From positions 1 to 64,000 of IMG/VR virus record IMGVR_UViG_3300000970_000001: DNA of 64,000 nucleotides; one strand, 5' to 3'. The position numbers and the translations under genes were made by a program. The DNA is from a virus. Shown piece after piece: positions 6,541 through 39,276 of this stretch. The notes beneath the pieces were generated by a model, which did not search any database, was not told the DNA's origin, and was given only the letters and a program-made list of their open reading frames with translations. Every line of letters begins with the position of its first letter. The stretch's first letter is position 1.

Positions 6541-6548
6541 GATATTAA

Positions 6549-7016: not shown

Positions 7017-7072
7017 TCTACTGTTTAAATTATTTGTTGATTATAATTTATTTTTAGGTGATTATTAAAAAC

Positions 7073-8293
7073 ATGGCGAAACAATTAGATAAAGATTTAG
7101 ATATTCAAAATGCTATCAAAGCTTCCTTAGGTGATGAGGACATTGATACAAGTAACTTCGCAGTATTTGAAGCTCGTATGTTGTCTACTGAGGCAATTAC
7201 TCAAAACGGTTTTCATGATGGGGCAAGAGTATCTAGATCAACATTAGTTGAGATGGCAGAGTATGTAAACACAGCAGGTACTGTTGTTCCTTTACAAACA
7301 ATGCATAACACTCAAGTATTACCAGTTGGGCGTGTATTTGCTGCCAATGTGCGCGATATGCCAAATGGAGAAACAGAATTAATGGGAATGTTTTACATTC
7401 CACAAGACAATGAAATGAAGACTGGTCTTGTAAAAGATATCGAGTCTGCGTTAATCGAAGAAGTCAGCGTTGGTCTACTGGCTAAAAAAGCTCTTTGTTC
7501 TGAGTGCGAATTCGATTACTTTGGAGAAGAAGCAGACTTTTTTAATATTCTTACCCTTACGTGTGACAATGAACACACTATTGGTAATAATGGTGTTCAC
7601 GTTCGATTAGTCGGAATGGACACATTTGCTGAGTTATCTTTAGTTGGACGTGGTGCAGCTAAAGATGCTAAGATTTTGTCAAGGGCTAAGAACAGTCAAA
7701 GCCTGAGTCAAGAAACTCGTGAGAGACTAGCTGCAAGCGGTGTACCCGCTGAAGCACACTTTCTCAACGCGTCCTTTAAACTGGACAGTTCTAAAAATGA
7801 AAAAACTCTAGAAGGAGAAAACCAAATGTCAGGACTAGAAACTATTCTATCTACAACTAGTCAGAAACTAGGTAAAGTTGAAGCTGAACTGTCTCAGGCA
7901 GCTACTACTATCGAAAGTCTGAATGGTGAAATTACTACACTTAAAGCTTCTGCTGAAGCTGACGCGACTAAAATCGCTGAACTTGAAGCAGCTCAAGGTG
8001 AAGGTGTAACTGAGTTAACAGCGTCAAATGAAGCGTTGACAACTCAACTTAACGAAGCAACAGAATTTGTAATCGGTGATCTTAAGGCTGCTCTTGTAGC
8101 TTCAGGTGAAGAAGAAGACAAACTTCCTGAAGACCTAACAGCAATGTTAAGCTTGGTTAAAGAAAAAGGTCTTAAACTACACCAGCTCTTCGGCGCAGAA
8201 CCTGCTTCTGATCCAGAGAAAACAGACGTGAAAGATAAAGCTGCTCAAAAAGCTTTAGCTGCACGTAAAGCTAACTTCAAAATAAACGATTAA
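7073..8293 (+). CDS. putative prohead protease / scaffolding protein
   Basis: It lies between the portal region and the capsid gene. The C-terminal third is an Ala/Glu/Lys-rich coiled coil (scaffold-like). The track start GTG 7058 was replaced by ATG 7073, which has AGGTGA upstream. Protease chemistry was not verified. Confidence 0.5.
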   Translation: MAKQLDKDLDIQNAIKASLGDEDIDTSNFAVFEARMLSTEAITQNGFHDGARVSRSTLVEMAEYVNTAGTVVPLQTMHNTQVLPVGRVFAANVRDMPNGETELMGMFYIPQDNEMKTGLVKDIESALIEEVSVGLLAKKALCSECEFDYFGEEADFFNILTLTCDNEHTIGNNGVHVRLVGMDTFAELSLVGRGAAKDAKILSRAKNSQSLSQETRERLAASGVPAEAHFLNASFKLDSSKNEKTLEGENQMSGLETILSTTSQKLGKVEAELSQAATTIESLNGEITTLKASAEADATKIAELEAAQGEGVTELTASNEALTTQLNEATEFVIGDLKAALVASGEEEDKLPEDLTAMLSLVKEKGLKLHQLFGAEPASDPEKTDVKDKAAQKALAARKANFKIND

Positions 8294-8304
8294 AGGAGAG
8301 ATAA

Positions 8305-8715
8305 ATGACTCAGATCGGCACAACTTCTCTTAATGGAATTTTCCACGAAGAGTTTCTATATACTTTTGTCCTAGCGGCAGGTATCGATGCAGACGATGAA
8401 GGTAAAGCAGTTGCTTTAGATTCAAGTGCTGCAAACACAGTAAAACTAGCTGCAGACGGTGAGGTTATCCTTGGTCGTTTGGAATTAGTAGAAAATCGCG
8501 TATCAGAAGGCATTTTGATTGGTACTGTATCACTTAAAGGTGGTCTTAAGTTCCCAATTGATGCTGGACTCGCAGCAGGTGACGTTCCTGACGTTGGTGA
8601 GTACCTTTCAGGTGCTACCGAAGTGGGTACAGTCAAAGGCTCTGCAACAGTGTCTAAATGGCAGGTTGTTGAAGTCGCTGCAGATGACTCATACGCAATT
8701 GCAATAGCTATTTAA
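8305..8715 (+). CDS. putative head decoration / DUF2190-like protein
   Basis: 136-aa ORF with a strong RBS (AAGGAGAG) immediately upstream of the major capsid gene. It is Gly/Ala/Val rich, as small capsid accessory proteins are. Confidence 0.45.
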   Translation: MTQIGTTSLNGIFHEEFLYTFVLAAGIDADDEGKAVALDSSAANTVKLAADGEVILGRLELVENRVSEGILIGTVSLKGGLKFPIDAGLAAGDVPDVGEYLSGATEVGTVKGSATVSKWQVVEVAADDSYAIAIAI

Positions 8716-8732
8716 GGAAAGGACTTAATACA

Positions 8733-9911
8733 ATGGCTGATTATGAACCTCTAAGTAAAGTTGGTAATATCAACTTAGACGACTTAGTAGCTAAGCTTAA
8801 ATCTACAAGCGAAACAGAATCTAAAGAAGCGGGTCTTGCACTTATGAAGACTGCTGCATCTTTCGGTATCTCAGTTCGTGACTATTTGATGCTTGCTGCT
8901 GGCTCTGAAACTGCTGACGAAGGTGGACTAAACGGGTACGAACGTGCTTTGTTTGCTCTTGATCTTCCAGTACGCGACAACTTTAAAGATGGCGTTTACT
9001 TACAAGCTGCTTCAGAAACATTCCAAACTCACGCAGGTACTCGTGCGTTGTTCCCAGAAGTGATTGATGACGTACTTCGCTTTGCGACTCGTCAAGATCA
9101 ATTCGAGACAACTGCTCCTATGCTTGCTAACACACGCACAATCTCTGGTGCTGAACTTCTTTCTACTGTTATCGATGATGACAGCAATGAAAACGATAGC
9201 TTCAGCGTATCAGAACTTGGTCGTATCCCTGTTCGCTCTATCCGTACTAGCGAGAAAACAGTGAAAATCTTCAAACACGGTTCTGCTCTTCGTACATCAT
9301 ACGAATTCAGTCGCCGTGCTTCGCTTGATCTTCTTGTTCCTCACGCTAATCGTATCGCTCGTGAACTTGAACTTTCTAAAGTTAAAGCAGCTACAGCTGT
9401 GTTGATTAACGGTGACGGTGCTTATGGTGCTGCTAACGAAGTTGACCAGTCTAGCTTTGATACAATCACTGGTGTTACAGCAACTGCGAATGAAATCTCT
9501 TGGACACACCTTCTTTACTGGTTAGTTCAACGTGCAAAAGCTGGTACTCCAGTTGATACCGTTGTAATGAACTGGGATGGATGGTTCCAGTGGTTGATGC
9601 TATTCGCTAAAAACCAAACACCAGATGGTGATACTCCAGCTGAGAGCTTGAATAAAGCAGGTGTAAGTATGGGTGCAGGTGGAAACATCTTCTCTAACCT
9701 TACTCCAGTTCTTTCAAGTTCAGTACCTGCTGGTAAACTTATTGGTTACACTAAGGGTGACACAATGGAAGAACTTGTTGAAGCAGGTTCTAACATTCAG
9801 GAAACTGAGCGTCAAATCCTTAACCAATCTATCACAATGGTTAAGACAGAGAACACTGGTTACCGTCTTGTTTACGGTGACACTCGTGAAATCTTTGATT
9901 TCGGTAACTAA
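8733..9911 (+). CDS. major capsid protein
   Basis: 392-aa ORF following the protease/scaffold and decoration-like genes. RBS is AAGGAAAGG, and a strong intrinsic terminator follows. Confidence 0.7.
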   Translation: MADYEPLSKVGNINLDDLVAKLKSTSETESKEAGLALMKTAASFGISVRDYLMLAAGSETADEGGLNGYERALFALDLPVRDNFKDGVYLQAASETFQTHAGTRALFPEVIDDVLRFATRQDQFETTAPMLANTRTISGAELLSTVIDDDSNENDSFSVSELGRIPVRSIRTSEKTVKIFKHGSALRTSYEFSRRASLDLLVPHANRIARELELSKVKAATAVLINGDGAYGAANEVDQSSFDTITGVTATANEISWTHLLYWLVQRAKAGTPVDTVVMNWDGWFQWLMLFAKNQTPDGDTPAESLNKAGVSMGAGGNIFSNLTPVLSSSVPAGKLIGYTKGDTMEELVEAGSNIQETERQILNQSITMVKTENTGYRLVYGDTREIFDFGN

Positions 9912-30357: not shown

Positions 30358-30589
30358 AGTAAAAGACATCCTAGAAGATGTAGACTTAGACAGAGTTTAC
30401 CTCTCAGTAGGAATTGCAATGGATTTGATTGCTGCTGGTAATGAAATCCTAAAACTCCTAAAAGCTGGAGAAGAAGTGGATGAGATCAAACTAATTGAAT
30501 TGATTGAAGTTCACAATAACGCTAAAGAGGCCGCACGAAATGAATTGATTGCCTCAATTAAAAAGCGTAAAGAAGCTAAAAAAGTTTAG
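30350..30589 (+). CDS. hypothetical helical protein in the lysis cassette
   Basis: 79-aa ORF overlapping the lipoprotein gene end. No TM segment was seen, so an i-spanin role is unsupported. Confidence 0.4.
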   Translation: MSKVKDILEDVDLDRVYLSVGIAMDLIAAGNEILKLLKAGEEVDEIKLIELIEVHNNAKEAARNELIASIKKRKEAKKV

Positions 30590-30601
30590 CCCAAGCCCAC
30601 T

Positions 30602-30630
30602 AGCCCTCACCATTGGTGAGGGCTTTTTAT
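30602..30630 (+). terminator. intrinsic terminator after the lysis cassette
   Basis: Stem AGCCCUCACC/GGUGAGGGCU, loop AUU, then UUUUUAUU. Confidence 0.8.
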
Positions 30631-30651
30631 TAACCAATAGAAAGTCACTAC

Positions 30652-31329
30652 ATGAAAAAGAAGAACTCTGTAAACGATGCTCAACGAGCAAACAAAATCA
30701 ATCTCTATCCTAAAAACAATAAACAAAGAGAGTATATAGAAGCCCTTCGAAATCATGACCAAGTATTTGCAATAGGACCTGCAGGAGCAGGTAAAACTTA
30801 TATTCCTACTATAATGGCAACTCAAGCCTATCTACGTGGTGACATCAAAAAGATAATCCTTACACGTCCTGCTGTTGCTGTTCAGGAAGAACATGGATTC
30901 TTACCTGGCTCCATTGACAAAAAGTTAGCCCCGTGGGTGTTACCAGTTACAGAAGTGATTGAGGAAGCCTTAGGTTCTAAACAACGCTTCCTTGACATGC
31001 TCAAGGCAGGTGACCTTGAGGTGGCTCCTTTTACTTATATGAGGGGTAGAACCTTCAAGGATGCCTTTGTCCTATTGGACGAGGCTCAGAACACCACAAA
31101 GGAACAGATGAAGATGTTCTTAACACGATTGGGAGAGAACGCCAAAGTTGTCATCAGTGGTGATATCGAACAGTCTGATATCAGAGCGGGGAGTGGACTA
31201 GCAATGGCTGTTGATCTTATTGACACTCACGATATTCCAGCCGCTAAGGTTGAGTTTAGAAGTAACCATGTGGTTCGTTCAGAATTGTGTAAGATGTGGG
31301 TTGAGGCATTTGAAAAAGGCCCCGATTAA
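30652..31329 (+). CDS. phoH: PhoH-like ATPase
   Basis: 225 aa with Walker A GPAGAGKTY and LLDEAQN; size typical of phage PhoH. Confidence 0.88.
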   Translation: MKKKNSVNDAQRANKINLYPKNNKQREYIEALRNHDQVFAIGPAGAGKTYIPTIMATQAYLRGDIKKIILTRPAVAVQEEHGFLPGSIDKKLAPWVLPVTEVIEEALGSKQRFLDMLKAGDLEVAPFTYMRGRTFKDAFVLLDEAQNTTKEQMKMFLTRLGENAKVVISGDIEQSDIRAGSGLAMAVDLIDTHDIPAAKVEFRSNHVVRSELCKMWVEAFEKGPD

Positions 31330-31342
31330 CGGGACCTTTTAT
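31318..31342. terminator. bidirectional hairpin at the convergence of the plus and minus transcription units
   Basis: GGCCCCG AUUAA CGGGACC with A-run and U-run flanks. It includes the phoH stop codon. Confidence 0.6.
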
Positions 31343-31497
31343 ATTCTTTATCTCGTCCGTTCTGTTGCTAAGTGGATGAATCTCCGAATTAGGCAGCTAG
31401 TGCGTAATCCATATTGCTATTATCATTTGCGATTAAGTAATACTAACATAGTATTTATCTTAAAATCAAGCGTTAATTAATACAATAATATTATTTA

Positions 31498-31574
31498 TGG
31501 TACTAGCGGAAGGATTCGAACCCTCAACCTGCGGAGTAGAAATCCGCTGCTCTAGTCCGTTGAGCTACGCTAGC
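31498..31574 (-). tRNA. tRNA-Arg (anticodon UCU)
   Basis: Hand-folded cloverleaf: acceptor GCUAGCG/CGCUAGU (G1-U72), anticodon stem-loop GCGGA UUUCUAC UCCGC, T-loop UUCGAAU, encoded CCA. Confidence 0.85.
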
Positions 31575-31637
31575 ATGTTGGAGGAAGGCACTGGTCCCGA
31601 TCCAGATGGTACATTTAAACCACGCAATGATTAGCAA

Positions 31638-31991
31638 TCACCCACAGCGACCCCGCTGTTTTACCTTCCATTCAATTCTCTGATACCACATATCATACTT
31701 ATAGGCTAACTTCCAGAGTGAGTTTTTAATTTTCCACAATCGATACTGCCACCCATTATTAATAAAAGCTTCTGTTGACATCTTAGGTACAGGAAACCAA
31801 GGAGGGCCATCTAAGTTACGAATAGGCATCAAGTCATTTGCATCAATGGTTAGAATAAGTTCCAACTCTGTCATACGTTCTTCAGGTGTTAGAGTATACC
31901 AATCTTCTCCTGTAGTTACGTGGAATCTTTTTATTCCTTTAGATTCCAAATGATCTGCTAAATCATCTCTTCTCTGTTCTAGTGTTTTCAT
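31638..31991 (-). CDS. hypothetical protein
   Basis: 117-aa ORF inside the tRNA island with a 4-nt overlap with the upstream ORF. Confidence 0.5.
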   Translation of the reverse strand: MKTLEQRRDDLADHLESKGIKRFHVTTGEDWYTLTPEERMTELELILTIDANDLMPIRNLDGPPWFPVPKMSTEAFINNGWQYRLWKIKNSLWKLAYKYDMWYQRIEWKVKQRGRCG

Positions 31992-32290
31992 ACTAATAGT
32001 CCCATTACGTATCGCGTTTCATTAAGTAACTCTTTTGGTATTCTAACATCTCCATTATGAAATGCTTTTAAAATTAAGTTAGCTGCTTTTTGTAGTCTTT
32101 GTTGATGTCTTATTTCCTCTTTAAAAAACTTACCAACATCAGGTAATTTTTTATATGTATGATATAATTGTTCAGTATTAGCAAACTCTTTTCTAAATAA
32201 TTTTAAGTTGTCTTCGTCTTCTTGAGTAGGACAGTTATAAAAGTTTATTATGTTTCCATAGTGTGTCCTAGTAATTATCATATCAACCAT
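31988..32290 (-). CDS. hypothetical protein
   Basis: 100-aa ORF starting 14 nt downstream of tRNA-Ser. Confidence 0.5.
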   Translation of the reverse strand: MVDMIITRTHYGNIINFYNCPTQEDEDNLKLFRKEFANTEQLYHTYKKLPDVGKFFKEEIRHQQRLQKAANLILKAFHNGDVRIPKELLNETRYVMGLLV

Positions 32291-32304
32291 GTTCTTGCTC
32301 CTAG

Positions 32305-32398
32305 TGGCGGTGGGTTAGGGGATCGAACCCTAAAGGGAGTATTAGTCCTCGCTGGTTTTCAAGACCAGTGCAGTCGCCAGCCATCTGCTTGACCCACC
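32305..32398 (-). tRNA. tRNA-Ser (UGA), long variable arm
   Basis: 94 nt: acceptor GGUGGGU/ACCCACC, anticodon stem-loop CUGGU CUUGAAA ACCAG, T-loop UUCGAUC, G73, CCA. Confidence 0.85.
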
Positions 32399-32406
32399 TT
32401 ATTATA

Positions 32407-32484
32407 TGGCACTACCCGTAGGACTCGAACCTACAACCTTCGGATTCGTAATCCGATGCTCTAGTCCAATTGAGCTAGAGTAGT
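32407..32484 (-). tRNA. tRNA-Arg (ACG)
   Basis: Anticodon stem-loop UCGGA UUACGAA UCCGA, D-arm GCUC AAUUGGACUA GAGC, T-loop UUCGAGU, CCA. Confidence 0.88.
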
Positions 32485-32522
32485 ATATCAAAACTCATTA
32501 TTGATCCGTACTTGTAGATCAA

Positions 32523-32607
32523 TGGTGGGCGGGTGCAGATTCGAACTACTCCCCCGAAGAGAAAGGCTTTACAGGCCTCGTGCTAGAACCACTAGCTTTA
32601 CCCACCC
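32523..32607 (-). tRNA. tRNA-Tyr (GUA), long variable arm
   Basis: 85 nt: acceptor GGGUGGG/CCCGCCC, anticodon stem-loop GAGGC CUGUAAA GCCUU, CCA. One mismatch at the base of the T-stem. Confidence 0.8.
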
Positions 32608-32612
32608 ATTAT

Positions 32613-32689
32613 TGGGTTGTGTGATGGGATTCGAACCCACAGCCTGATCGATCACACCGATCTGCTCTAACCGTTGAGCTACACACAAC
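32613..32689 (-). tRNA. tRNA-His (GUG) with encoded G-1
   Basis: An extra 5' G pairs with C73, the His hallmark. Anticodon stem-loop GAUCG GUGUGAU CGAUC, CCA. Confidence 0.88.
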
Positions 32690-32696
32690 ATATTTT

Positions 32697-32771
32697 TGGC
32701 GAACGTGAAGGGGATTGAACCCTCATCTTCTTCCTCGACAGGGAAGCGCATTACCAGTCTGCCACACGTTC
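32697..32771 (-). tRNA. tRNA-Asp (GUC)
   Basis: Acceptor GAACGUG/CACGUUC, anticodon stem-loop CUUCC CUGUCGA GGAAG, T-loop UUCAAUC, CCA. Confidence 0.88.
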
Positions 32772-32919
32772 TAATCTAATTTTTAATTTTTGTCTAGTAC
32801 CACTCTTTGTTTTACCTAAGTTAATATTTCTTTTGTAGTACTGACAACATCTACACCACTTATGCTTTTTACCCCTCTTTATGTTTATCATAGATTTCAT
32901 AGTTATTCTCCTTAAAATT

Positions 32920-32994
32920 TGGTGCTAGATGAAAGACTCGAACTCTCAATTCCTGATTACAAAACAGGCGTGTTGCCATTAACACTAAACTAGC
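32920..32994 (-). tRNA. tRNA-Thr (UGU)
   Basis: Anticodon loop UUUGUAA, T-loop UUCGAGU, CCA. One U-U mismatch in each of the acceptor and anticodon stems. Confidence 0.75.
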
Positions 32995-32995
32995 A

Positions 32996-33070
32996 TGGTG
33001 GCCGCACGAAGACTCGAACTTCAATCCTACCCATTATGAGTGGGCAGCTCTACCCCTGAGCTATACGGCT
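32996..33070 (-). tRNA. tRNA with CAU anticodon (Met, initiator-like or Ile2; undecided)
   Basis: Anticodon stem-loop GCCCA CUCAUAA UGGGU. Positions 1:72 are unpaired (A-C), an initiator-like trait, but the 29-31 GGG signature is absent. CCA encoded. Confidence 0.75.
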
Positions 33071-33076
33071 TTAATT

Positions 33077-33151
33077 TGGTATCAGAAACTGGATTCGAAC
33101 CAATATCTTCTAGCTTATGAGACTAGCGCTTTTCCGTTAAGCTATCCTGAT
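33077..33151 (-). tRNA. tRNA with CAU anticodon (Met or Ile2; undecided)
   Basis: Acceptor AUCAGGA/UUCUGAU, anticodon stem-loop CUAGU CUCAUAA GCUAG, T-loop UUCGAAU, CCA. Confidence 0.8.
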
Positions 33152-33599
33152 GTGTTTTATTTCTCCTTATACAGGAAATAGTTGAATGGGAAACATTAAA
33201 TAGTTTACCGATTTCTGTATTATTAATCCCTTCTTTTATCAACTGTCTTACTTTAATTAAATCTGATTGAGTTAATTTACTATTGTTATTCTTAGTTCCT
33301 GTTTGTATTGATCCAAGTCTATTTTTATTTGCTGCGTCTACCATATTATCTTTAGGAGTACCATCAAACAAATGATTAGGATTAACACATTTTGGATTGT
33401 CACACTTATGACAACAAAACTCTTTTGGAAAAACTTTATGTTTTAAGTAAAAAGAATATCTGTGGGCATAGTGTATACCTCTACCTATTTTTCTACGTTT
33501 TACTACACCATACCCGTGGTTATTTAAAGCTCCTAACCATTGCCAGCATTCATTTTCTTTACCTATTTTAACCTTATCCCAGAATAAATTATCTTTCAT
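33123..33599 (-). CDS. HNH homing endonuclease
   Basis: Carries CWQWLGALNNHGYG...YAHRYSF...CHKCDNPKCVNPNHL plus a C-terminal HTH-like NTEIGKLFNVSHSTIS. The last 9 codons and the stop lie inside the tRNA at 33077-33151. Confidence 0.88.
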   Translation of the reverse strand: MKDNLFWDKVKIGKENECWQWLGALNNHGYGVVKRRKIGRGIHYAHRYSFYLKHKVFPKEFCCHKCDNPKCVNPNHLFDGTPKDNMVDAANKNRLGSIQTGTKNNNSKLTQSDLIKVRQLIKEGINNTEIGKLFNVSHSTISCIRRNKTHQDSLTEKR

Positions 33600-33616
33600 T
33601 TTTGTACCTTCTTAAT

Positions 33617-33691
33617 TGGTGCAGGAACAGATGATCGAAATCTGAACTCAAGTTTGGAAGACTTGCACGTTGCCACTTACGCCATTCCTGC
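33617..33691 (-). tRNA. tRNA-Gly (UCC)
   Basis: Acceptor GCAGGAA/UUCCUGC, anticodon stem-loop CAAGU CUUCCAA ACUUG, T-arm CAGAU UUCGAUC AUCUG, CCA. Confidence 0.85.
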
Positions 33692-33700
33692 ACTTAGTAT

Positions 33701-33776
33701 TGGTGGAACCCCTAGGAATCTAACCCAATCCTTCTGGTCTTCAATCAGATGTGCGCAACAGCTACACCAGAGTTCC
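33701..33776 (-). tRNA. tRNA-Phe (GAA), atypical T-loop
   Basis: Anticodon loop UUGAAGA, A31-C39 mismatch, T-loop UUAGAUU (A56), D-loop AGCUGUUGC (G18 U19), CCA. Confidence 0.65.
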
Positions 33777-33782
33777 GTTATT

Positions 33783-33860
33783 TGGCTGGAGTAATTGGAT
33801 TCGAACCAATCTTCATCTCGGTTAACAGCCGAGTGCATTCGCCTAGAATACTATACTCCA
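33783..33860 (-). tRNA. tRNA-Asn (GUU)
   Basis: Acceptor UGGAGUA/UACUCCA, anticodon stem-loop CUCGG CUGUUAA CCGAG, T-loop UUCGAAU, CCA. Confidence 0.88.
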
Positions 33861-33864
33861 AAAT

Positions 33865-33898
33865 TAAAAAACCCTCCTCAAGTACTTCTTGGGAGGGT
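33865..33898 (-). terminator. intrinsic terminator A, abutting the tRNA-Asn 5' end
   Basis: Minus-strand RNA ACCCUCC CAAGAAGUACUUGA GGAGGGU followed by UUUUUUAAUUUU. tRNA-Asn begins right after the U-tract. Confidence 0.75.
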
Positions 33899-33924
33899 GA
33901 AAATAAATAAACATACTTAATTGT

Positions 33925-33981
33925 TTACATACAACGACCCTCATCACCGCTTCTTCCAAAGCCGCGTGTCGAATAATTCAT
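33925..33981 (-). CDS. leader peptide ORF A (MNYSTRGFGRSGDEGRCM), putative attenuator leader
   Basis: 18 codons, starting 16 nt after the receiver-gene stop. 16 of 18 residues belong to the specificities of the downstream tRNA block. GAGGGU (33937-33942) is complementary to the terminator 5' arm ACCCUC. Confidence 0.55.
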   Translation of the reverse strand: MNYSTRGFGRSGDEGRCM

Positions 33982-33997
33982 ATCTGTATGTATACAG

Positions 33998-34336
33998 TTA
34001 AACATTTTCTTTAATCCAGTTTAGAACTTTCTGTTCAAGTTCTGATTTATCTACCATTTGATCCTGTGGTAGGTACAGGTTATTCATGTATAGTAACCCA
34101 GATGTAATTATAAAGTCAACTTCTTTTTTAACTTTAGGTCTAAGATCATCATAAATGGCTTTACCGTTTTCGTTTGATAGGTTTATATCTAATATTATAA
34201 GATCGTATTTGTCTATACTTATGGTAAAACCGTCATAATCACCAACAGTATGTATTTCTATTTCACAATCCTTTAACTTTTCTCTTAGTAATATACGTTC
34301 AGTAGGACAATCGTCAATATATAGAATGTGTTTCAT
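33998..34336 (-). CDS. stand-alone CheY-like receiver domain protein
   Basis: 112 aa from ATG 34336; the longer track ORF runs over two tRNA genes. Sequence MKHILYIDDCP...DLIILDINLSNENG...DFIITSG...VDK carries the acidic pair, phospho-acceptor Asp, Thr/Ser and Lys positions of receiver domains. Confidence 0.6.
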   Translation of the reverse strand: MKHILYIDDCPTERILLREKLKDCEIEIHTVGDYDGFTISIDKYDLIILDINLSNENGKAIYDDLRPKVKKEVDFIITSGLLYMNNLYLPQDQMVDKSELEQKVLNWIKENV

Positions 34337-34359
34337 TCCAGTATAGTAACATATAATAA

Positions 34360-34436
34360 TGGTACACGCCACAGGAATTGAACCTGTCTTAAAGAGGATG
34401 TAAACCTCCCGCTTAACGCCAGTCAGCCAGACGTGT
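34360..34436 (-). tRNA. tRNA-Val (UAC)
   Basis: Acceptor ACACGUC/GGCGUGU, anticodon stem-loop GGAGG UUUACAU CCUCU, T-loop UUCAAUU, CCA. Confidence 0.85.
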
Positions 34437-34442
34437 CTAAAT

Positions 34443-34518
34443 TGGTGGAACCTGTGGGAATCAAACCCACCGCAGTCTGCTTGCAAAGCAGTCTCGCCCT
34501 CTTGGAACATGAGGCCCC
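34443..34518 (-). tRNA. tRNA-Ala (UGC), atypical D-arm and T-loop
   Basis: 76 nt: acceptor GGGGCCU/AGGUUCC with G3-U70, anticodon loop UUUGCAA, T-loop UUUGAUU (U56). The D-arm folds only as GUUC/GGGC with a short loop. CCA encoded. Confidence 0.65.
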
Positions 34519-34524
34519 TTAAAC

Positions 34525-34601
34525 TGGAGATCGCGGTGGGATTCGAACCCACATACTTCTGGGTAAAAACCAGACGTAACAGCCAGTTGTACTACGCGAT
34601 C
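34525..34601 (-). tRNA. tRNA-Lys (UUU)
   Basis: Acceptor GAUCGCG/CGCGAUC, anticodon stem-loop UCUGG UUUUUAC CCAGA, T-loop UUCGAAU, CCA. Confidence 0.85.
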
Positions 34602-34602
34602 T

Positions 34603-34678
34603 TGGTTGTCGATGAAGGATTCGAACCTTCAACCTGCCCCTAATCAGGGGGCTGCACTACCAGTTGTGCTAATCGACA
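34603..34678 (-). tRNA. tRNA-Ile (GAU)
   Basis: Acceptor UGUCGAU/AUCGACA, anticodon stem-loop GCCCC CUGAUUA GGGGC, T-loop UUCGAAU, CCA. Confidence 0.88.
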
Positions 34679-34679
34679 A

Positions 34680-34705
34680 TAAAAAACCCACCTAAAAGGT
34701 GGGTC
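34680..34705 (-). terminator. intrinsic terminator B, abutting the tRNA-Ile 5' end
   Basis: Minus-strand RNA ACCCACC UUUUA GGUGGGU followed by UUUUUUAU. Confidence 0.75.
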
Positions 34706-34737
34706 TAGAATTCTTTTTCTTAAACATACGAAAAGAT

Positions 34738-34800
34738 TCAGCCCACCCCTCTGGTGTCTGCTTTAATCTTAATCGCTACAATGTTGTTTTGCTCTCGCAT
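34738..34800 (-). CDS. leader peptide ORF B (MREQNNIVAIKIKADTRGVG), putative attenuator leader
   Basis: 20 codons with GAGG upstream. Residues 7-14 (IVAIKIKA) use only the four specificities of the tRNAs that follow (Ile, Lys, Ala, Val). The last codons GGGGUGGGC (34741-34749) copy the terminator 3' arm and can pair with its 5' arm. Confidence 0.6.
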   Translation of the reverse strand: MREQNNIVAIKIKADTRGVG

Positions 34801-34820
34801 TTTCTCTATTTCCTCTAACT

Positions 34821-34897
34821 TGGAAGGGCTAACGGGATTCGAACCCGCGTCTACCAATTGAAAGTCGGTATGTCCTTGACCACTAGACGATAGCCCC
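34821..34897 (-). tRNA. tRNA-Glu (UUC)
   Basis: Anticodon stem-loop ACCGA CUUUCAA UUGGU, D-arm GUCUAGUGGUCAAGGAC, T-loop UUCGAAU, G1-U72, CCA. Confidence 0.85.
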
Positions 34898-34929
34898 ATT
34901 AAGTTAGTTTGGTGCTTATCGTTAGGATT

Positions 34930-34959
34930 AATATAACCTAGTTAATATAGGTATGTCAA
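34930..34959 (-). promoter_or_regulatory. sigma70-type promoter TTGACA-N18-TATATT facing tRNA-Glu
   Basis: The exact -35 consensus (plus 34954-34959 TGTCAA) and a 5/6 -10 (plus 34930-34935 AATATA) lie about 30 nt upstream of the tRNA-Glu 5' end. Confidence 0.55.
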
Positions 34960-34973
34960 CTTCTTTATTTAAT

Positions 34974-35047
34974 TGGCACAGGAACAAGGAATCAAACCTC
35001 AGTCTGCGGGGTTGGAAGCCGCCGTGTTATCACTACACTATTCCTGC
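34974..35047 (-). tRNA. tRNA-Trp (CCA), atypical D/T loops
   Basis: 74 nt: anticodon loop UUCCAAC with a C31-C39 mismatch, D-loop AGUGAUA (G18 A19), T-loop UUUGAUU (U56), CCA. Confidence 0.7.
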
Positions 35048-35048
35048 A

Positions 35049-35126
35049 TGGTTGGAGAGGTGGGGTTCGAACCCACATTGCACCCGTTCAAAGCGGGTAG
35101 CCTTACCAACTGTTGGCTACTCTCCA
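35049..35126 (-). tRNA. tRNA-Gln (UUG)
   Basis: U1-A72, anticodon stem-loop ACCCG CUUUGAA CGGGU, T-loop UUCGAAC, CCA. Confidence 0.88.
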
Positions 35127-35129
35127 TAA

Positions 35130-35206
35130 TGGTGCTCCCCCTCAGATTCGAACTGAGACTGTACCGCTTCTAAGGCGGCTCCCTCTGCCAGTTGGGGTAG
35201 AGGAGC
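35130..35206 (-). tRNA. tRNA with Leu anticodon UAG but a short (5-nt) variable loop
   Basis: 77 nt: acceptor GCUCCUC/GGGGAGC, anticodon stem-loop GCCGC CUUAGAA GCGGU, variable ACAGU, T-arm CUCAG UUCGAAU CUGAG, A73, CCA. Confidence 0.7.
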
Positions 35207-35214
35207 GTTATAAT

Positions 35215-35292
35215 TGGTCGGGTGGGCAAGATTCGAACTTGCGATACTCGGCCTCCAAAGCCGATAACTTGACCAGACTAGTTCACCACCCG
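35215..35292 (-). tRNA. tRNA-Pro (UGG)
   Basis: C1-G72, acceptor CGGGUGG/CCACCCG, anticodon stem-loop UCGGC UUUGGAG GCCGA, CCA. Confidence 0.88.
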
Positions 35293-35369
35293 TGGTACTC
35301 TCAGTCAGATTCGAACTGACACTGTGGGGATTTTAAGTCCCCTGCCTCTTCCAGTTGGGCTATGAGAGC
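35293..35369 (-). tRNA. tRNA with Leu anticodon UAA but a short (5-nt) variable loop
   Basis: 77 nt: acceptor GCUCUCA/UGAGAGU, anticodon stem-loop GGGGA CUUAAAA UCCCC, variable ACAGU, T-arm GUCAG UUCGAAU CUGAC, A73, CCA. It is a paralogue of the UAG tRNA. Confidence 0.7.
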
Positions 35370-35370
35370 T

Positions 35371-35410
35371 TAATACAAAAAGCCCCTCTATCTTGCGATT
35401 AGGGGCTTTT
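35371..35410 (-). terminator. intrinsic terminator C, abutting the first tRNA of the island
   Basis: Minus-strand RNA AAAAGCCCCU A AUC GCAA GAU AG AGGGGCUUUU UGUAUU, a 7-bp GC stem plus an inner GNRA-capped stem. Confidence 0.75.
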
Positions 35411-35439
35411 AAATTCTTTTGAACTTACTTAGACATACC

Positions 35440-35496
35440 TCAACGCTGTTCTCCTAAAGGGAGCAATTGTTGCAGTTGTGGTAACCAGTTGTTCAT
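35440..35496 (-). CDS. leader peptide ORF C (MNNWLPQLQQLLPLGEQR), putative attenuator leader
   Basis: 18 codons, starting 14 nt after the stop of the 105-aa gene. Residues 4-14 (WLPQLQQLLPL) use only Trp, Leu, Pro and Gln, exactly the specificities of the five tRNAs that follow. Confidence 0.6.
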   Translation of the reverse strand: MNNWLPQLQQLLPLGEQR

Positions 35497-35510
35497 AGTG
35501 TTAATATAGT

Positions 35511-35828
35511 CTATTCTTTGTTGTTTGTCAAATTTAAAAATTCTTCAGGAGTCATTTCAGTAGCAAGAAACTTATTTTCCTTGGTTATATACTGAACAGG
35601 TTCGATTATCTGACTGTCTATGTCAAGATATGCAACGTACCTTAGTATCTTATCCTCATCATTGACAGTTGGTGATTCTATTAAAGCTTTACATGGTGAA
35701 AACAACCAGTATCCATTATCTCCATATTTAGAAGAAAACACATACGTGAAGTCTTCATTAGGTATAATATGAAGAATCTTTACTGATTCATAAGATTCTT
35801 CTGATCCAAGTATAAATTTTTTAGTCAT
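35511..35828 (-). CDS. hypothetical protein
   Basis: 105-aa ORF with RBS AGAGGA. It lies downstream of the tRNA-like RNA and upstream of leader C. Confidence 0.55.
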   Translation of the reverse strand: MTKKFILGSEESYESVKILHIIPNEDFTYVFSSKYGDNGYWLFSPCKALIESPTVNDEDKILRYVAYLDIDSQIIEPVQYITKENKFLATEMTPEEFLNLTNNKE

Positions 35829-35878
35829 AGTTAGTCCTCTGTGGTTTAAGAGTTAAAAGTTAAAGTTACTCAGTAAAT

Positions 35879-35940
35879 TGGTGGAGCCGCTCGGTATTGC
35901 ACCGAGGTCCAGACTAAGCTGTCGATCCTATTTCGGCCCC
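35879..35940 (-). ncRNA. 62-nt tmRNA tRNA-like-domain (TLD)-like RNA lacking an mRNA-like domain
   Basis: Sequence: GGGGCCG AAAUA GGAUCGAC AGCUUAGUCU GGAC CUCGG UGCAAUA CCGAG CGGCUCC ACCA. It has a 7-bp acceptor stem with G3-U70, a T-arm, A73 and encoded CCA. GGAUCGAC and GGAC match tmRNA 5'/3' end motifs (E. coli GGAUUCGAC ... GGAC). Confidence 0.55.
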
Positions 35941-36084
35941 GAATAAGTGAAGAGGGAGAGGTTGGGATACTACTCTCATAGACCATGACCAAATACCTTT
36001 TGATTTACTGATCTAACCTATCGTTACTCTCATGTAGAGTAGCAGTGTCCCGCCCGATAGTACCTTATAACCTTTGGTAAGCTA

Positions 36085-36321
36085 TTATTCAGCCACCTCT
36101 TCATCTGGTATGCCTACCAGATATTCTAATAATTCTCTTGCTTTAAACTCATAAATGTCATACAGGCCATACTCTCGTATTTTTAAACCTGTTACTGATC
36201 CTATTTGAGTTGCGATTACATTAGCATATACTCTTGGGTATCGCAACTCAATAATAGGATTTTTTGGATTAATTTTAATCGCTTCCTGACATGTTTCTTT
36301 TAACCCTCGCAAGCGATACAT
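36085..36321 (-). CDS. hypothetical protein
   Basis: 78-aa ORF overlapping the nrdA 3' end by 22 nt. Confidence 0.45.
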   Translation of the reverse strand: MYRLRGLKETCQEAIKINPKNPIIELRYPRVYANVIATQIGSVTGLKIREYGLYDIYEFKARELLEYLVGIPDEEVAE

Positions 36322-37973
36322 CCTTCGTTCTTAGCACGTTCACGCATAAACGCTTGAGCCTCACTTAAGGAGTACTGGTAGTAAAGGGTTTTAAGACCTA
36401 GTTCCCAAGCTGTAAAGTATAGTCTATTGATCTCTCGCGTTGGCATTTGAGGGTCAACCATAATATTAATTGATTGACCTTGGTCAATATAGGGCTGACG
36501 TACTGCTGCCTGATTCAAAATTGCTTCAGGATCAATCTCATATATAGTTTTAAATACTTGTTTTTCTTGATCTGTAAGGAAGTCAAGATGTTGTACTGAA
36601 CCGTCTTGTGCTCTGATTGATAACCATACTTCTTTAGTATTCTGGTTATGACGTTCAAGCACTGGTACAAGATAAGGATTCTTCCAAGTCATTTTATCTT
36701 TGGCACAGTCCTTAACATAGTAATTAGAAAACTCTGGTTCAATTGACATTGATACCTGTCCTAAAATGTATGAAGACGACTTAGTTGGAGCCACCGCTAA
36801 TAAAGTGGTGTTTCTACGACCTTTACCTTTTAGTAACTTAGGTTCACCGAATATTTCTGCAAGTTTTCCACTTGCCTTATATGCATCGTTGTTAATCTTT
36901 TTAAAGATTTCTAAGTTTAACTTAGCAGCTTCTCTACTCTCAAATGGTATTTCATTTTTAAGAAGGTAGGCATGCCATCCAAGTACACCTACTCCAAGTG
37001 CTCTGTGTTCTTTAGCAAACTTACGTACACGTCTCATGAGGTACTGAATTTCCTCATTCATTTCGTCAATTCTCTCTAAGAACTCTGTCACAACTGAGTC
37101 TAAGAACATAGTGAGAACTTCGACAGCATCTGTGTTTTTCCATTCATCATACTCCGAGATATTCATTGAGGATAAAACACACACAAAAGATTCATCGGGC
37201 GAGGATGGTAACGCGATTTCCGTACACATATTTGATGCGTTAATTTTCATGTTATTTTCTTTATAAACATCTACAGTATCTCGGTTCACTGTATCAGTAA
37301 AGAAGATGTACGGTACACCTTTCTCTGATCGGACGCGTAGAACTTCTGCCCAACGGTCCTGTGCTTCTTCATCACCATCACGAACTCTGTTCATGAAGTC
37401 ATCTGATACACAAACACCGTGTTTAGTGTTTTGAATTGTGTGTTCTTCTGTTCCGATTTTAACGAAGTCATAAAAATCTCCGTGATCTATATCTATGTAA
37501 GGAGAGAATTGACCTCGTCTTACTGATCCTTGAGACACTACGTTAGCCACTTTGTCAAACATACCCATAAAGTGTACGGCTCCAAATGACTCCCCATTAT
37601 TGGAAATCGCTGCACCACGAGGGCGTAACTTACCAAAGTAACCTGATGTACCGCCGCCAAACTTAGACAACATTCCTACTTCAGCAGCCGTAAACAAAAT
37701 GTTTTCCATGTTGTCACTAATGTCTGAGTTAAAGCAGGACACTGGTAAACCTCTTGTGGTTGCATAATTTGACCACACAGGAGAGGACAATGAGTAAAAC
37801 CCACGCGACATGTAGTCGTAGAATTTATCTCCTATACCTTCGATACCATTGATCCCTTGAAATCTATCAGCAATCACTCGAACACGCTCGGGCACGGTCT
37901 GGCCCTCAGCTAGATAATCTCTTTGAATAAATTTTTGTGAGTGTTCGTTCACCCAATTAAAGTTTGTATACAT
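36300..37973 (-). CDS. nrdA: ribonucleotide reductase large subunit, class I, without an ATP-cone
   Basis: 557 aa with GGGTSGYFGKLRPRGA, the active-site NMCTEIALPS and a C-terminal CIACEG Cys pair. Its start abuts the nrdB stop. Confidence 0.9.
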   Translation of the reverse strand: MYTNFNWVNEHSQKFIQRDYLAEGQTVPERVRVIADRFQGINGIEGIGDKFYDYMSRGFYSLSSPVWSNYATTRGLPVSCFNSDISDNMENILFTAAEVGMLSKFGGGTSGYFGKLRPRGAAISNNGESFGAVHFMGMFDKVANVVSQGSVRRGQFSPYIDIDHGDFYDFVKIGTEEHTIQNTKHGVCVSDDFMNRVRDGDEEAQDRWAEVLRVRSEKGVPYIFFTDTVNRDTVDVYKENNMKINASNMCTEIALPSSPDESFVCVLSSMNISEYDEWKNTDAVEVLTMFLDSVVTEFLERIDEMNEEIQYLMRRVRKFAKEHRALGVGVLGWHAYLLKNEIPFESREAAKLNLEIFKKINNDAYKASGKLAEIFGEPKLLKGKGRRNTTLLAVAPTKSSSYILGQVSMSIEPEFSNYYVKDCAKDKMTWKNPYLVPVLERHNQNTKEVWLSIRAQDGSVQHLDFLTDQEKQVFKTIYEIDPEAILNQAAVRQPYIDQGQSINIMVDPQMPTREINRLYFTAWELGLKTLYYQYSLSEAQAFMRERAKNEGCIACEG

Positions 37974-39224
37974 TTAAAATAAGTCCTTTGCTGTAAATGA
38001 TTTGTTGCCTTGAGCATATTTAGTATCGTCTGTATGGAAAAAGTCAATAAGTTTACTGGCTATAAGTTCATCTTCAAACCACTCTACCTCATCTGTGACA
38101 TTTTCATCACACTCAAAGATAGGATCAACACCAATTCTAACTAGTGAGTTGTTTGTACGGTATTTTATGTACTCTTTAACTGTTGCCTTAGGCATAAAAT
38201 CAAGATCACCAGTTTCAAAAATCCAATCAACTACTTCCATTTCAGCTTCAACAGCTTCTTGACTAATATCCTTAATATACTCAATTAAGTCTTCATCAAA
38301 CCAAGTAGGGTTTTCTTTCTTGATAGTTTTTATAAGTTCAAAACCAAACTCTGCGTGAATAATCTCTTCTTTGCTAGTAGCTTCCACGGCATTAGAAATA
38401 CCCTTTAACTTACCAAGGTGTTTTCGGTAAGACATGAGAATAAGAAATTGTGAAAACAATGATACGTTTTCAACAAATATAGAGAACAAAATGATTGCTT
38501 CAAAGAAATCTCTGTTATCTGTTGCTCTCATGTTAGCGTTAACTTTATCAAGATATTTAATTCTCTTCGCCATACATGGTACATCAGCCAAAGACTTAAA
38601 CTGACCATGGAAGCCAAGCAGTTTTATAAGTTCTTTATAAGCATCTTCATGTCTGACTTCGGAATCAGCAAATGTAAATCCAACAGCAGCCACTTCGGGC
38701 TTGGGCATCTTAGTGTGAATCGTGCCCCAAAATACTTTAACTGCTACTTCGATTTGAGAGATAGCCAACATGGCTTTAGTGGCTACAGCAACCTGTTCAG
38801 GTGTCATAGTTACTTTCATGTCTTGAATATCTGACTCATAGTTGAGGTGTTTAAATGTCCAAAAGGACTTATGCACTGCTTCCTTATAGGGTGCAAACTG
38901 TGGGTACTCTGAAGGTTCTACCTCTACTCTCTTACGAAAGATATCTGGTTTGTTTGCATCGCGGTAAGTAATATATGATCTGGCAACATCGTGTAGTTTT
39001 GCGTCCATCAAAGAGTTCTCTACCAAGATGTGAATTTGATCCACATGTGGTGTGTCATTCTCCCAAGATTTTAACTTCCTCAAAACTTTTCTTGTTATCT
39101 TTTCTGCTACTAACTCGTCTGGGCTATCACCCATTGACTTAATGATTGCTTCAGTGATTTTCTTTGCATCAAACACGACAATAGACCTGTCCCGCTTGAT
39201 AACATGTACGATGTTACCAGACAT
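37974..39224 (-). CDS. nrdB: ribonucleotide reductase small subunit with an N-terminal ATP-cone
   Basis: Di-iron ligand motifs SEVRHEDAY and EEIIHAEFG. The N-terminal ~90 aa (VIKRDRSIVVFDAKKITEAI...ARSYITYRD) is an ATP-cone. The track start GTG 39266 was replaced by ATG 39224. Confidence 0.85.
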   Translation of the reverse strand: MSGNIVHVIKRDRSIVVFDAKKITEAIIKSMGDSPDELVAEKITRKVLRKLKSWENDTPHVDQIHILVENSLMDAKLHDVARSYITYRDANKPDIFRKRVEVEPSEYPQFAPYKEAVHKSFWTFKHLNYESDIQDMKVTMTPEQVAVATKAMLAISQIEVAVKVFWGTIHTKMPKPEVAAVGFTFADSEVRHEDAYKELIKLLGFHGQFKSLADVPCMAKRIKYLDKVNANMRATDNRDFFEAIILFSIFVENVSLFSQFLILMSYRKHLGKLKGISNAVEATSKEEIIHAEFGFELIKTIKKENPTWFDEDLIEYIKDISQEAVEAEMEVVDWIFETGDLDFMPKATVKEYIKYRTNNSLVRIGVDPIFECDENVTDEVEWFEDELIASKLIDFFHTDDTKYAQGNKSFTAKDLF

Positions 39225-39276
39225 ATATTTGCTTTCTTTAGATTGATTTGGATTAATTAGTATCACATATTAGATA

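Follow-up and report, generated by a model that had tools for sequence, protein, structure and literature searches.

Small reading frames matched to the tRNA blocks they precede in a phage tRNA island: candidate ribosome-mediated attenuators and their analogues

Why phages carry tRNA genes, and how these genes are expressed, is a long-standing question, and we know of no regulatory logic for phage tRNA arrays. The question is raised anew by a tRNA island within a stretch of viral DNA of 64,000 nucleotides (positions 1 to 64,000 of IMG/VR record IMGVR_UViG_3300000970_000001; hereafter “the window”), in which three blocks of tRNA genes are each preceded on the minus strand by a small open reading frame (ORF; here called a leader), a spacer and a G+C-rich hairpin with a U-tract. 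The modules are named C, B and A in their order along that strand. What would a short reading frame and a terminator be doing in front of tRNA genes? An initial annotation of this DNA had noted that the leaders are made up of codons read by the tRNAs encoded just downstream and had likened the modules to the trp-type leader-peptide attenuators, a form of control regarded as limited to biosynthetic operons and a small number of others. From the sequence and from modeled RNA folds, we consider it likely that the modules are ribosome-mediated transcription attenuators in front of phage tRNA blocks. The match between each leader and its own block is not a product of chance, and the same arrangement recurs in other phages.

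Three leader-terminator modules and their codons

All three minus-strand modules (ORF, spacer, then G+C-rich hairpin with a U-tract before a tRNA block) were confirmed where they had been reported (Table 1). The U-tracts end 0 to 7 nt short of the first tRNA, as described, and the spacers between ORF and hairpin were corrected from 26 to 33 nt to 26 to 31 nt (~31 nt in module C, 31 nt in module B and 26 nt in module A). In module C, for example, the U-tract extends to about position 35372 and tRNA-Leu(UAA) starts at 35369. Predicted stabilities of the three terminator hairpins range from −14 to −17 kcal/mol, and all carry U-tracts. In none of the three modules is there room for a promoter between the terminator and its tRNAs, so the tRNAs would be expressed only by read-through. 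The modules differ in how transcription and translation of the leader would begin. The sigma-70-type promoter of leader C has a −10 element ending 6 nt before the ATG, which places the predicted transcription start at about the A of the ATG, and the transcript is probably leaderless. Between block C and leader B lie a second near-consensus promoter and a tRNA-Glu(UUC) gene, with which the leader B transcript would begin, ahead of any attenuation. Leader A can be read in a short form or in a long form from an in-frame ATG (34005) that overlaps the stop codon of a receiver-domain gene; the added residues include His, Phe and an Ile encoded by ATA, a codon that would be readable if either of the two CAU tRNAs of block A were Ile2. 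Leader A probably starts at this upstream ATG, coupled to translation of the preceding gene.

To what extent the leaders match their blocks beyond chance was evaluated against 1549 small ORFs of 8 to 60 codons from all six frames of the whole window. The longest run composed solely of L, P, Q and W among these ORFs lies in leader C (11 residues; next longest 10 and 9), the longest run restricted to the specificities of block A lies in the long form of leader A (16 residues; next longest 14 and 13), and the longest run of I, K, A and V is eight residues, a length at which leader B is tied. When all 4845 possible sets of four amino acids were ranked, the true set came 1 to 2 for leader C and 1 for leader B, and the 3 × 3 matrix of leaders against tRNA sets was diagonal (C: 11, 0, 2; B: 1, 8, 4; A: 0, 0, 12). 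The same three ORFs were recovered by a blind pipeline, in which sites were defined as tRNAs with a hairpin and T-tract at most 15 nt upstream, a block as all tRNAs until the next such site, and ORFs ending near the hairpin were scored by their longest run, converted to a P value by exact dynamic programming. Over the 64-kb window this returned exactly three candidates, leaders C (P = 1.7 × 10−6), A (run of 16; P = 3.8 × 10−5) and B (P = 9.4 × 10−5). The chance probability of the three matches jointly is below about 1 × 10−6. Set ranking, comparison with the window's small ORFs and blind scanning thus all bear out the claimed amino acid match, with the leaders at the top of the small ORFs (leader B tied); the per-run probabilities offered by the initial annotation were rough, and its conclusion that the runs exceed chance holds. 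Readability at the level of codons, also claimed, was upheld with five misses: 38 of the 43 in-set codons are strictly decodable by the tRNAs of the block against 31.9 expected from the codon usage of the phage itself (z = 2.66), including 9 of 9 in leader B (5.9 expected).

Minimum-energy folds contain all three terminators, and the leader regions are more structured than shuffled sequences (z = −3 to −5). The 3′ parts of ORFs A and B, which had been proposed to act as antiterminators, are indeed predicted to pair with the 5′ arm of the respective terminator; in leader C the corresponding pairing is weak. In leader A the predicted antiterminator strand is GAGGGT (33942-33937, within the ORF), a copy of the terminator 3′ arm that pairs with ACCCTC, and in leader B it is GGGGTGGGCTGAATCTTTTC, which runs from the third-last sense codon through the stop codon into the spacer, and whose partner GAAAAAGAATTCTAGACCCACC includes the terminator 5′ arm. 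Folding was repeated with a ribosome footprint of 29 nt masked and moved codon by codon. In leader B, where the regulatory run IVAIKIKA occupies 34782-34759 of the minus strand, a ribosome with its A site on codons 5 to 13 (NNIVAIKIK) left a long antiterminator, GGGGUGGGCUGAAUCUUUUC paired with GAAAAAGAAUUCUAGACCCACC; in the free RNA, or with the ribosome on codon 14 to the stop, the terminator formed, giving the 1:2 / 2:3 / 3:4 pattern of an attenuator. Folds truncated before the terminator 3′ arm, mimicking the moment of decision, had the terminator 5′ arm paired upstream in all three leaders when the ribosome was in the early or regulatory codons; with the ribosome at the end of the ORF the arm was released fully in A, largely in C and partly in B. 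Among 150 dinucleotide shuffles per leader, the switch statistic of leader A was reached by 2, as was the pairing strength of leader B. On these models, a ribosome-dependent switch is clear, indeed of textbook form, for B, moderate for A and weak for C, and predicted structure by itself would not carry the attenuator claim.

Table 1. Positions of the leader-terminator modules, their promoters and the tRNA blocks in the window
Feature	Position	Strand	Details
Promoter of leader C, sigma-70-type	35503-35531	−	TTGACA-17-TATATT; 11 of 12 consensus positions
Leader ORF C	35440-35496	−	MNNWLPQLQQLLPLGEQR; 18 codons; residues 4-14 (35487-35455) solely W, L, P, Q
Terminator C	35372-35407	−	Hairpin 35407-35381, AGCCCCT..GNRA loop..AGGGGCT, then TTTTTGTATT; −17.3 kcal/mol including A/U extension
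tRNA block C	34974-35369	−	Leu(UAA), Pro(UGG), Leu(UAG), Gln(UUG), Trp(CCA)
Promoter and tRNA-Glu(UUC)	34821-34959	−	TTGACA-18-TATATT at 34959-34930; tRNA-Glu(UUC) at 34897-34821; between block C and leader B
Leader ORF B with Shine-Dalgarno-like AGAGGA	34738-34816	−	AGAGGA at 34816-34811; ORF MREQNNIVAIKIKADTRGVG at 34800-34738; 20 codons
Antiterminator B (predicted)	34698-34749	−	GGGGTGGGCTGAATCTTTTC (34749-34730) pairs with GAAAAAGAATTCTAGACCCACC (34719-34698)
Terminator B	34679-34706	−	AGACCCACC-TTTT-AGGTGGGT, then TTTTTATT; hairpin 34706-34686; adjoins tRNA-Ile (34678)
tRNA block B	34360-34678	−	Ile(GAU), Lys(UUU), probable degenerate Ala(UGC), Val(UAC)
Leader ORF A	33925-34005	−	Short form MNYSTRGFGRSGDEGRCM (33981-33925; 18 codons); long form MFNCIHTDMNYSTRGFGRSGDEGRCM from ATG 34005 (26 aa)
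Terminator A	33861-33898	−	ACCCTCCCAAG-AAGTA-CTTGAGGAGGGT (−16.1 kcal/mol), then TTTTTTAATTTT; hairpin 33898-33871; adjoins tRNA-Asn (33860)
tRNA block A, first part	31498-33860 (whole block)	−	Asn, Phe, Gly(UCC), [HNH gene], two CAU tRNAs, Thr, Asp
tRNA block A, rest	31498-33860 (whole block)	−	His, Tyr, Arg(ACG), Ser(UGA), [two ORFs], candidate Ser(GCU), Arg(UCU)
Candidate tRNA-Ser(GCU)	~31579-31664	−	Loosest ARAGORN setting; overlaps 3′ end of ORF 31638-31991

Analogous leaders in other phages

To evaluate whether the arrangement recurs, 228 loci were fetched from IMG/VR by two patterns that required only a T-tract followed by the 5′ half of a tRNA, and were passed through the same pipeline. 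Five of 145 nonredundant candidate ORFs reached P ≤ 10−3, against 0.15 expected and 0.18 in a set-swap control with tRNA sets exchanged between loci, and three reached P ≤ 10−5 (0.001 expected), while the bulk of the distribution was well calibrated (16 observed against 14.5 expected at P ≤ 0.1). An identical pattern and pipeline applied to 120 loci from bacterial and archaeal genomes gave 29 candidates, none of them at P ≤ 10−3.

One analogue (locus L119) has a Shine-Dalgarno sequence, the leader MNMATHITLGDIEAVGIAEAAVVCEGGDTSPSGGLG, a terminator and an array of Val (three), Gly (four), Ala (three), Asp, Glu (two), Cys and Ile (UAU; a relaxed call). Its run GDIEAVGIAEAAVVCEGGD spans 19 residues (P = 1.4 × 10−8), with matches at codon level that include TGT for Cys and ATA for Ile(UAU), and a four-segment, trp-like structure is predicted for the leader. 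Cys aside, the array itself (5181-9737 of the locus, reverse strand) is made up almost entirely of tRNAs that read GNN codons, several isoacceptors each for Val, Ala, Asp, Glu and Gly, a specialization that is unusual in a phage array. In another locus (L331), MKRDLLYSSLSLLSLWRGR, with the run LLYSSLSLLSL, precedes Leu(UAA), Leu(UAG), Ser(UGA) and Tyr (P = 2.5 × 10−6), and a TTG-N19-TATATTTG motif 7 nt upstream of the ATG is what we take to be a Bacteroidota-type promoter producing a leaderless transcript.

Two further cases bear on whether leader and array change together. A 67-kb IMG/VR contig (L253) carries three paralogous leaders with a common MRTI(L)N start, of which the first and third also have a common ...DLTTL end. 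Between these conserved parts the cores differ, with NKHKHFSKSSKWFSNK ahead of a block of K H F K W W K H F K N, SSSRSSS ahead of Arg, Ser, Ser, Ser and INLNMINVNNTLNTVMVLNTLCIR ahead of N N I R I T L C M, and by sequence the paralogues represent a within-genome form of covariation. Orthologues of two of these leaders, with their cores conserved, were found in LR745206.1, the 635-kb GenBank sequence of an uncultured huge phage. The tRNA arrays of that sequence (333361-353119; locus L480) and of L253 are ~73% identical and have duplicated His-Phe, Trp-Trp and Lys units. The L039 family comprises nine contigs in two subtypes with ~70% nucleotide identity, among which the promoter (TTGACT-17-TATAAT, 6 nt before the ATG and hence leaderless by prediction), the reading frame and the stop codon are conserved. 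In subtype 1 the array has Leu(UAA) only and the Leu codons of the leader are TTA, TTG and TTA; in subtype 2, in which a tRNA-Leu(UAG) has been gained, the leader reads CTA in two places, a synonymous replacement of TTA in one and of TTG in the other. As read from the sequences, this is the kind of codon-level covariation that control by decoding would predict.

Weaker analogues are L271 and L089. The latter came from a looser scan that did not demand an adjacent terminator, and its run TPGTEGDTP (P = 1.4 × 10−4) lies ~85 nt before an array of Glu, Thr, Met, Gly, Asp, Ala and Pro tRNAs. Its terminator resembles terminator B of the window; the hairpin of that terminator (GACCCACC..AGGTGGGTTTTTT) has at least 119 matches in IMG/VR, almost none of them adjoining tRNAs, and is a generic terminator, so the resemblance is probably convergent and not a sign of homology. 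In all analogues inspected for pairing, the terminator 5′ arm has a complementary stretch in the 3′ region of the ORF, like that of leaders A and B of the window, and in most of them an ORF 3′ segment nearly duplicates the terminator 3′ arm. The same kind of switch is predicted by ribosome-masked folds of L119, L039, L065 and L089.

Some smaller features are common to several leaders. The −10 (or −7) element ends 6 to 7 nt before the leader ATG in no fewer than three unrelated families (35503-35496 in the window, ~570-588 in L039 and ~2210-2247, reverse strand, in L331); with this spacing the leader mRNAs are predicted to be leaderless, an arrangement that may serve to enforce tight coupling of transcription and translation. 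An AAC AAC pair (Asn-Asn) stands directly before the regulatory run in both leader B (34785-34790) and leader C (35488-35493) on the minus strand, and this pair, like the MRTI(L)N start of the L253 leaders, may represent a common N-terminal or initiation context. Glu is present in all three leaders of the window, always outside the runs, and tRNA-Glu alone has its own unattenuated promoter.

Proposed mechanism, rival explanations and known systems

In the mechanism that we propose, RNA polymerase would reach the three leaders by different routes: leader C from its own promoter as a leaderless ORF, leader B from the tRNA-Glu promoter, and leader A by read-through of the preceding gene, with translational coupling. 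A ribosome would then translate the leader of 18 to 26 codons, the core of which acts as a “sampler” of codons decoded by the tRNAs just downstream. With ample decoding capacity for all sampled codons, the ribosome would arrive at the end of the ORF and cover the 3′ segment (the near copy of the terminator 3′ arm), the terminator hairpin would form, and transcription would end 0 to 7 nt before the first tRNA. If any one of the sampled aminoacyl-tRNAs were scarce, the ribosome would stall in the core, and the free 3′ segment would pair with the terminator 5′ arm and allow read-through into the block. A finished leader would favor termination and a stalled core read-through because the antiterminator strand sits at the 3′ end of the ORF, and since completion favors the one and stalling the other, the sign of the circuit would be that of negative feedback on decoding capacity. 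Such a circuit would act as an OR-gate over several tRNA species and let the supply of phage tRNAs follow demand. The signal sensed would be total capacity, host plus phage, so that arrays could come on when host tRNAs decay, are degraded or are cleaved in the course of infection. The model further predicts that altering GGGGTGGGC in leader B or GAGGGT in leader A would result in constitutive termination.

The trp-type interpretation of the initial annotation is supported by the codon match, by terminators that no promoter bypasses and by recurrence in other phages, together with a switch that is clear in B, moderate in A and weak in C. The anatomy of the modules, the statistical match of codons and amino acids, the thermodynamic plausibility of a switch and the recurrence elsewhere are all supported by the present analysis; from these we infer translation of the leaders, termination at the hairpins and the direction of the response. 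Translation-dependent attenuation would be the only economical explanation, because in-frame strings of codons running from ATG to stop match the downstream anticodons and stand before a terminator that cannot be bypassed. Somewhat more guardedly, we regard it as probable that the elements make up an undescribed class in several unrelated phage lineages, in which often leaderless sampler leaders measure decoding capacity for the codons of the downstream array and gate that array by attenuation.

Several observations weigh against this interpretation. Leaders C and A (short form) have no Shine-Dalgarno sequence, and would need leaderless initiation and coupling to the upstream gene, respectively, both of which are deduced here. 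The codons of set C are closed under reverse complementation (CAA/TTG, CAG/CTG, CCA/TGG), which inflates the level expected by chance for leader C, the call of tRNA-Ala in block B is weak, five in-set codons (CTC, CCT, GGC, GGT and GGT) are not strictly cognate to the anticodons of their blocks, and leader A contains Cys codons, yet no phage tRNA was found for them. In the folds, antiterminator C is no better than that of shuffled sequences (24 of 150), and the truncated-fold difference for leader B is not significant (33 of 150). The evidence for covariation of leader codons with array content amounts to one evolutionary event, in the L039 family. Among cultured phages, T5, the FelixO1-like wV8, pf16 and phiA8-29 were examined and have no such leaders (in wV8, promoters sit directly before the tRNAs), from which it follows that the device is lineage-restricted; it is not universal among phages. 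No cultured phage carrying the element was found, nor were cultured relatives of L039, L119 or L253, the sole match to L253 being the uncultured LR745206.1. The phage of the window has no close relatives in which conservation of its own leaders could be followed: megablast and blastn matches to GenBank phages were restricted to tRNA genes, and IMG/VR searches with the ribonucleotide reductase (RNR) large subunit and a 105-aa ORF that precedes leader C gave no useful relatives. The nearest RNR relatives (L002-L005) are 66% and 61% identical and have no tRNA island at the corresponding position.

The alternative nearest to the proposed attenuation accepts that the leaders are translated and sense decoding capacity, and places the output elsewhere, in access of Rho, RNase processing, stability of the precursor or a response of reversed polarity. 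The codon match demands only a function linked to translation, the structural switch is statistically weak for C and no more than moderate for the other two leaders, and L089 has ~85 nt between its terminator and the first tRNA downstream, so that the two do not adjoin. We nevertheless find a different output unlikely, given the canonical hairpin and U-tract directly before the tRNAs in all three modules and most analogues, spacers of 26 to 31 nt that hold a terminating ribosome off the hairpin, and ORF 3′ ends that repeatedly copy the terminator 3′ arm, which is explained solely by competition between terminator and antiterminator. A role for the codon runs as RNA, binding the anticodons of downstream tRNAs in the manner of a T-box specifier to sense or titrate them, is improbable. 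A codon by definition complements the anticodon that reads it, and the match alone is no proof of translation; the matching triplets are, however, contiguous, in one frame and bounded by ATG and stop, and that frame is kept, with synonymous changes, between relatives of ~70% nucleotide identity. Promoters moreover set the transcript start at the ATG, or a Shine-Dalgarno sequence precedes it (leader B and L119), and Rfam reported neither a T-box nor any other family at gathering score; for T-boxes, there was no Rfam match in 30500-37000 even at E ≤ 1.

That the hairpins are ordinary leaky terminators, or stabilizers of the 3′ ends of upstream genes, and the small ORFs meaningless, with a composition due to chance or arising as a by-product of sequence that forms hairpins, is strongly disfavored, and we judge it very improbable. 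This view can draw on the closure of the set C codons, because of which LQ-rich minus-strand ORFs reach runs of 9 to 10 in the window, and on the generic hairpin of terminator B, common in IMG/VR and rarely next to tRNAs. It has to contend with a joint probability below 1 × 10−6 for three top-ranked matches, with analogues from a blind scan that have different amino acid sets while set-swap and bacterial controls stay flat, and with paralogous and orthologous leaders that track their own blocks. Conservation of the reading frames within families would equally be expected of functional micropeptides whose composition resembles the tRNA set by accident. Their sequences are unrelated between families, though, the L253 paralogues keep their ends and swap their cores in step with the downstream tRNAs, and the conserved 3′ parts coincide with segments of RNA pairing, and we attach scarcely any probability to such peptides. 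The idea that the leaders are decayed tRNA genes, suggested by a D-loop-like ACAACTGG in leader C, was dropped without formal test, as it leaves the in-frame codon match unexplained.

Ribosome-mediated attenuation, as proposed for the modules, has well-known counterparts. Like trpL, hisL, leuL, pheL, thrL, ilvL and ivbL, the modules have a short ORF rich in regulatory codons and, ahead of the first gene under control, an intrinsic terminator; as in trp-type attenuators, the antiterminator is predicted to span the ORF 3′ end and the terminator 5′ arm, with the position of the ribosome deciding the structure; and, as with thrL and ilvL, the leader samples several amino acids. Of the features of the trp/his/leu/thr/ilv/phe type, the leader ORF, the codon enrichment and the terminator without an intervening promoter are present, and biosynthetic target genes are absent. 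Unlike in biosynthetic attenuators, it is tRNA genes and not enzymes that would be controlled, the loop would close on decoding capacity and not on amino acid supply, leaders of the window type sample 3 to 11 specificities, often with one or two codons each and no long runs of one codon, and some of them are predicted to be leaderless. Rfam leader families gave only subthreshold matches on leader B (Trp_leader, 23.2 bits against a gathering score of 41; Phe_leader, 24.9 bits against 55; E = 0.29 to 0.8).

The nearest functional precedent is the pheM leader of the Escherichia coli pheST operon, where leader-peptide attenuation of phenylalanyl-tRNA synthetase responds to charged tRNA. There, too, a gene of the translation apparatus is controlled by leader-peptide attenuation; in pheM, however, the target is one synthetase and the signal a single amino acid, whereas the modules described here would control tRNAs themselves and sense many codons. 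T-box riboswitches likewise monitor tRNA status through a choice between terminator and antiterminator in the leader and control translation-related genes, but they bind uncharged tRNA directly by one specifier codon and the T-box sequence, without translation, while the elements of the window are ORFs. In the proline-codon leader ORFs mgtL (mgtA) and mgtP (mgtCBR) of Salmonella, the speed of translation at given codons selects between alternative stem-loops, as proposed here, although those leaders respond to Pro-tRNA or osmotic state and govern genes for Mg2+ transport and virulence, whereas the leaders of the window match the downstream tRNA genes. A full-text literature search turned up no account of tRNA genes under leader-peptide attenuation, whether in phages or in cells, nor of any regulatory logic for phage tRNA arrays, in agreement with the view of the initial annotation that no such attenuation had been described. 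The possibility of an attenuator at the tRNA-Phe genes of E. coli found no support in PMC3082878.

Leaders of this kind, so far undescribed, appear to recur as a feature of tRNA arrays in phages. If the mechanism is correct, leader-peptide attenuation would extend to RNA genes and to viruses, production of phage tRNAs would be controlled by demand, and each leader would state which codons the phage “worries about.” The supply of tRNAs would then be homeostatic and possibly responsive to defense, being induced, for example, upon degradation of host tRNAs or their cleavage by anticodon nucleases, and hypotheses of tRNA supplementation and anti-defense would become testable with simple reporter constructs. 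It would also provide a new annotation rule for small ORFs in tRNA islands and supply synthetic biology with compact, modular devices that sense how well a chosen set of codons can be decoded.

The tRNA island and its phage

The window (38% G+C) lies within a 77.8-kb phage contig from a JGI metagenome. By terminase, the closest cultured phages are Achromobacter phages JWF and 2-1, Caulobacter phage Seuss and Pseudoalteromonas phage KB12-38, with 41 to 45% amino acid identity. The island runs from 35369 to 31498 on the minus strand and is flanked by RNR genes and phoH. ARAGORN called 19 tRNAs in the window at default settings, and the blocks given by the initial annotation were confirmed with ARAGORN and Rfam, except that tRNA-Phe required Rfam or relaxed ARAGORN settings, tRNA-Tyr required relaxed ARAGORN settings, and Ala(UGC) and Ser(GCU) were seen solely at the loosest ARAGORN setting (ps80 for Ala). 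In the Ala(UGC) candidate (~34517-34443) the T and anticodon arms are perfect, the CCA end is encoded and a G3:U70 pair is present, but the D arm is poor and Rfam gives no match; the candidate is probably a degenerate tRNA-Ala. The candidate Ser(GCU) would decode an AGC codon in leader A. A weak tmRNA-like Rfam match (28 bits, E = 0.008) was found at 31389-31481 (minus strand), between phoH and tRNA-Arg(UCU).

Two protein-coding genes are of note within the island. An ORF of 158 aa (33123-33599, minus strand), assigned by reading of its sequence as HNH-type homing-endonuclease-like, interrupts block A and separates Gly(UCC) from the two CAU tRNAs; the tRNA region of T5 is interrupted by HNH genes as well. 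The receiver-domain gene whose stop codon overlaps the upstream ATG of leader A (33998-34336, minus strand) encodes a CheY-like protein of 112 aa consisting of the receiver domain only (PF00072). This protein is an orphan, its sole match in a word-seeded search of 5.8 billion proteins being itself.

Upstream of the island, the region 36300-39266 (minus strand) encodes a 430-aa protein upstream of the 557-aa RNR large subunit. By synteny with genes of the relatives L002-L005 (PF03477 and PF00268), the 430-aa gene probably encodes an RNR small subunit with a fused ATP-cone; in those relatives, no ATP-cone match was seen in the RNR large subunit. At 35947-36122 (minus strand), in the interval that separates the RNR large-subunit gene from the 105-aa ORF ahead of leader C, the manA RNA motif (RF01745) is matched over the full length of the model, with 47.6 bits (gathering score 55.2) and E = 4.4 × 10−10.

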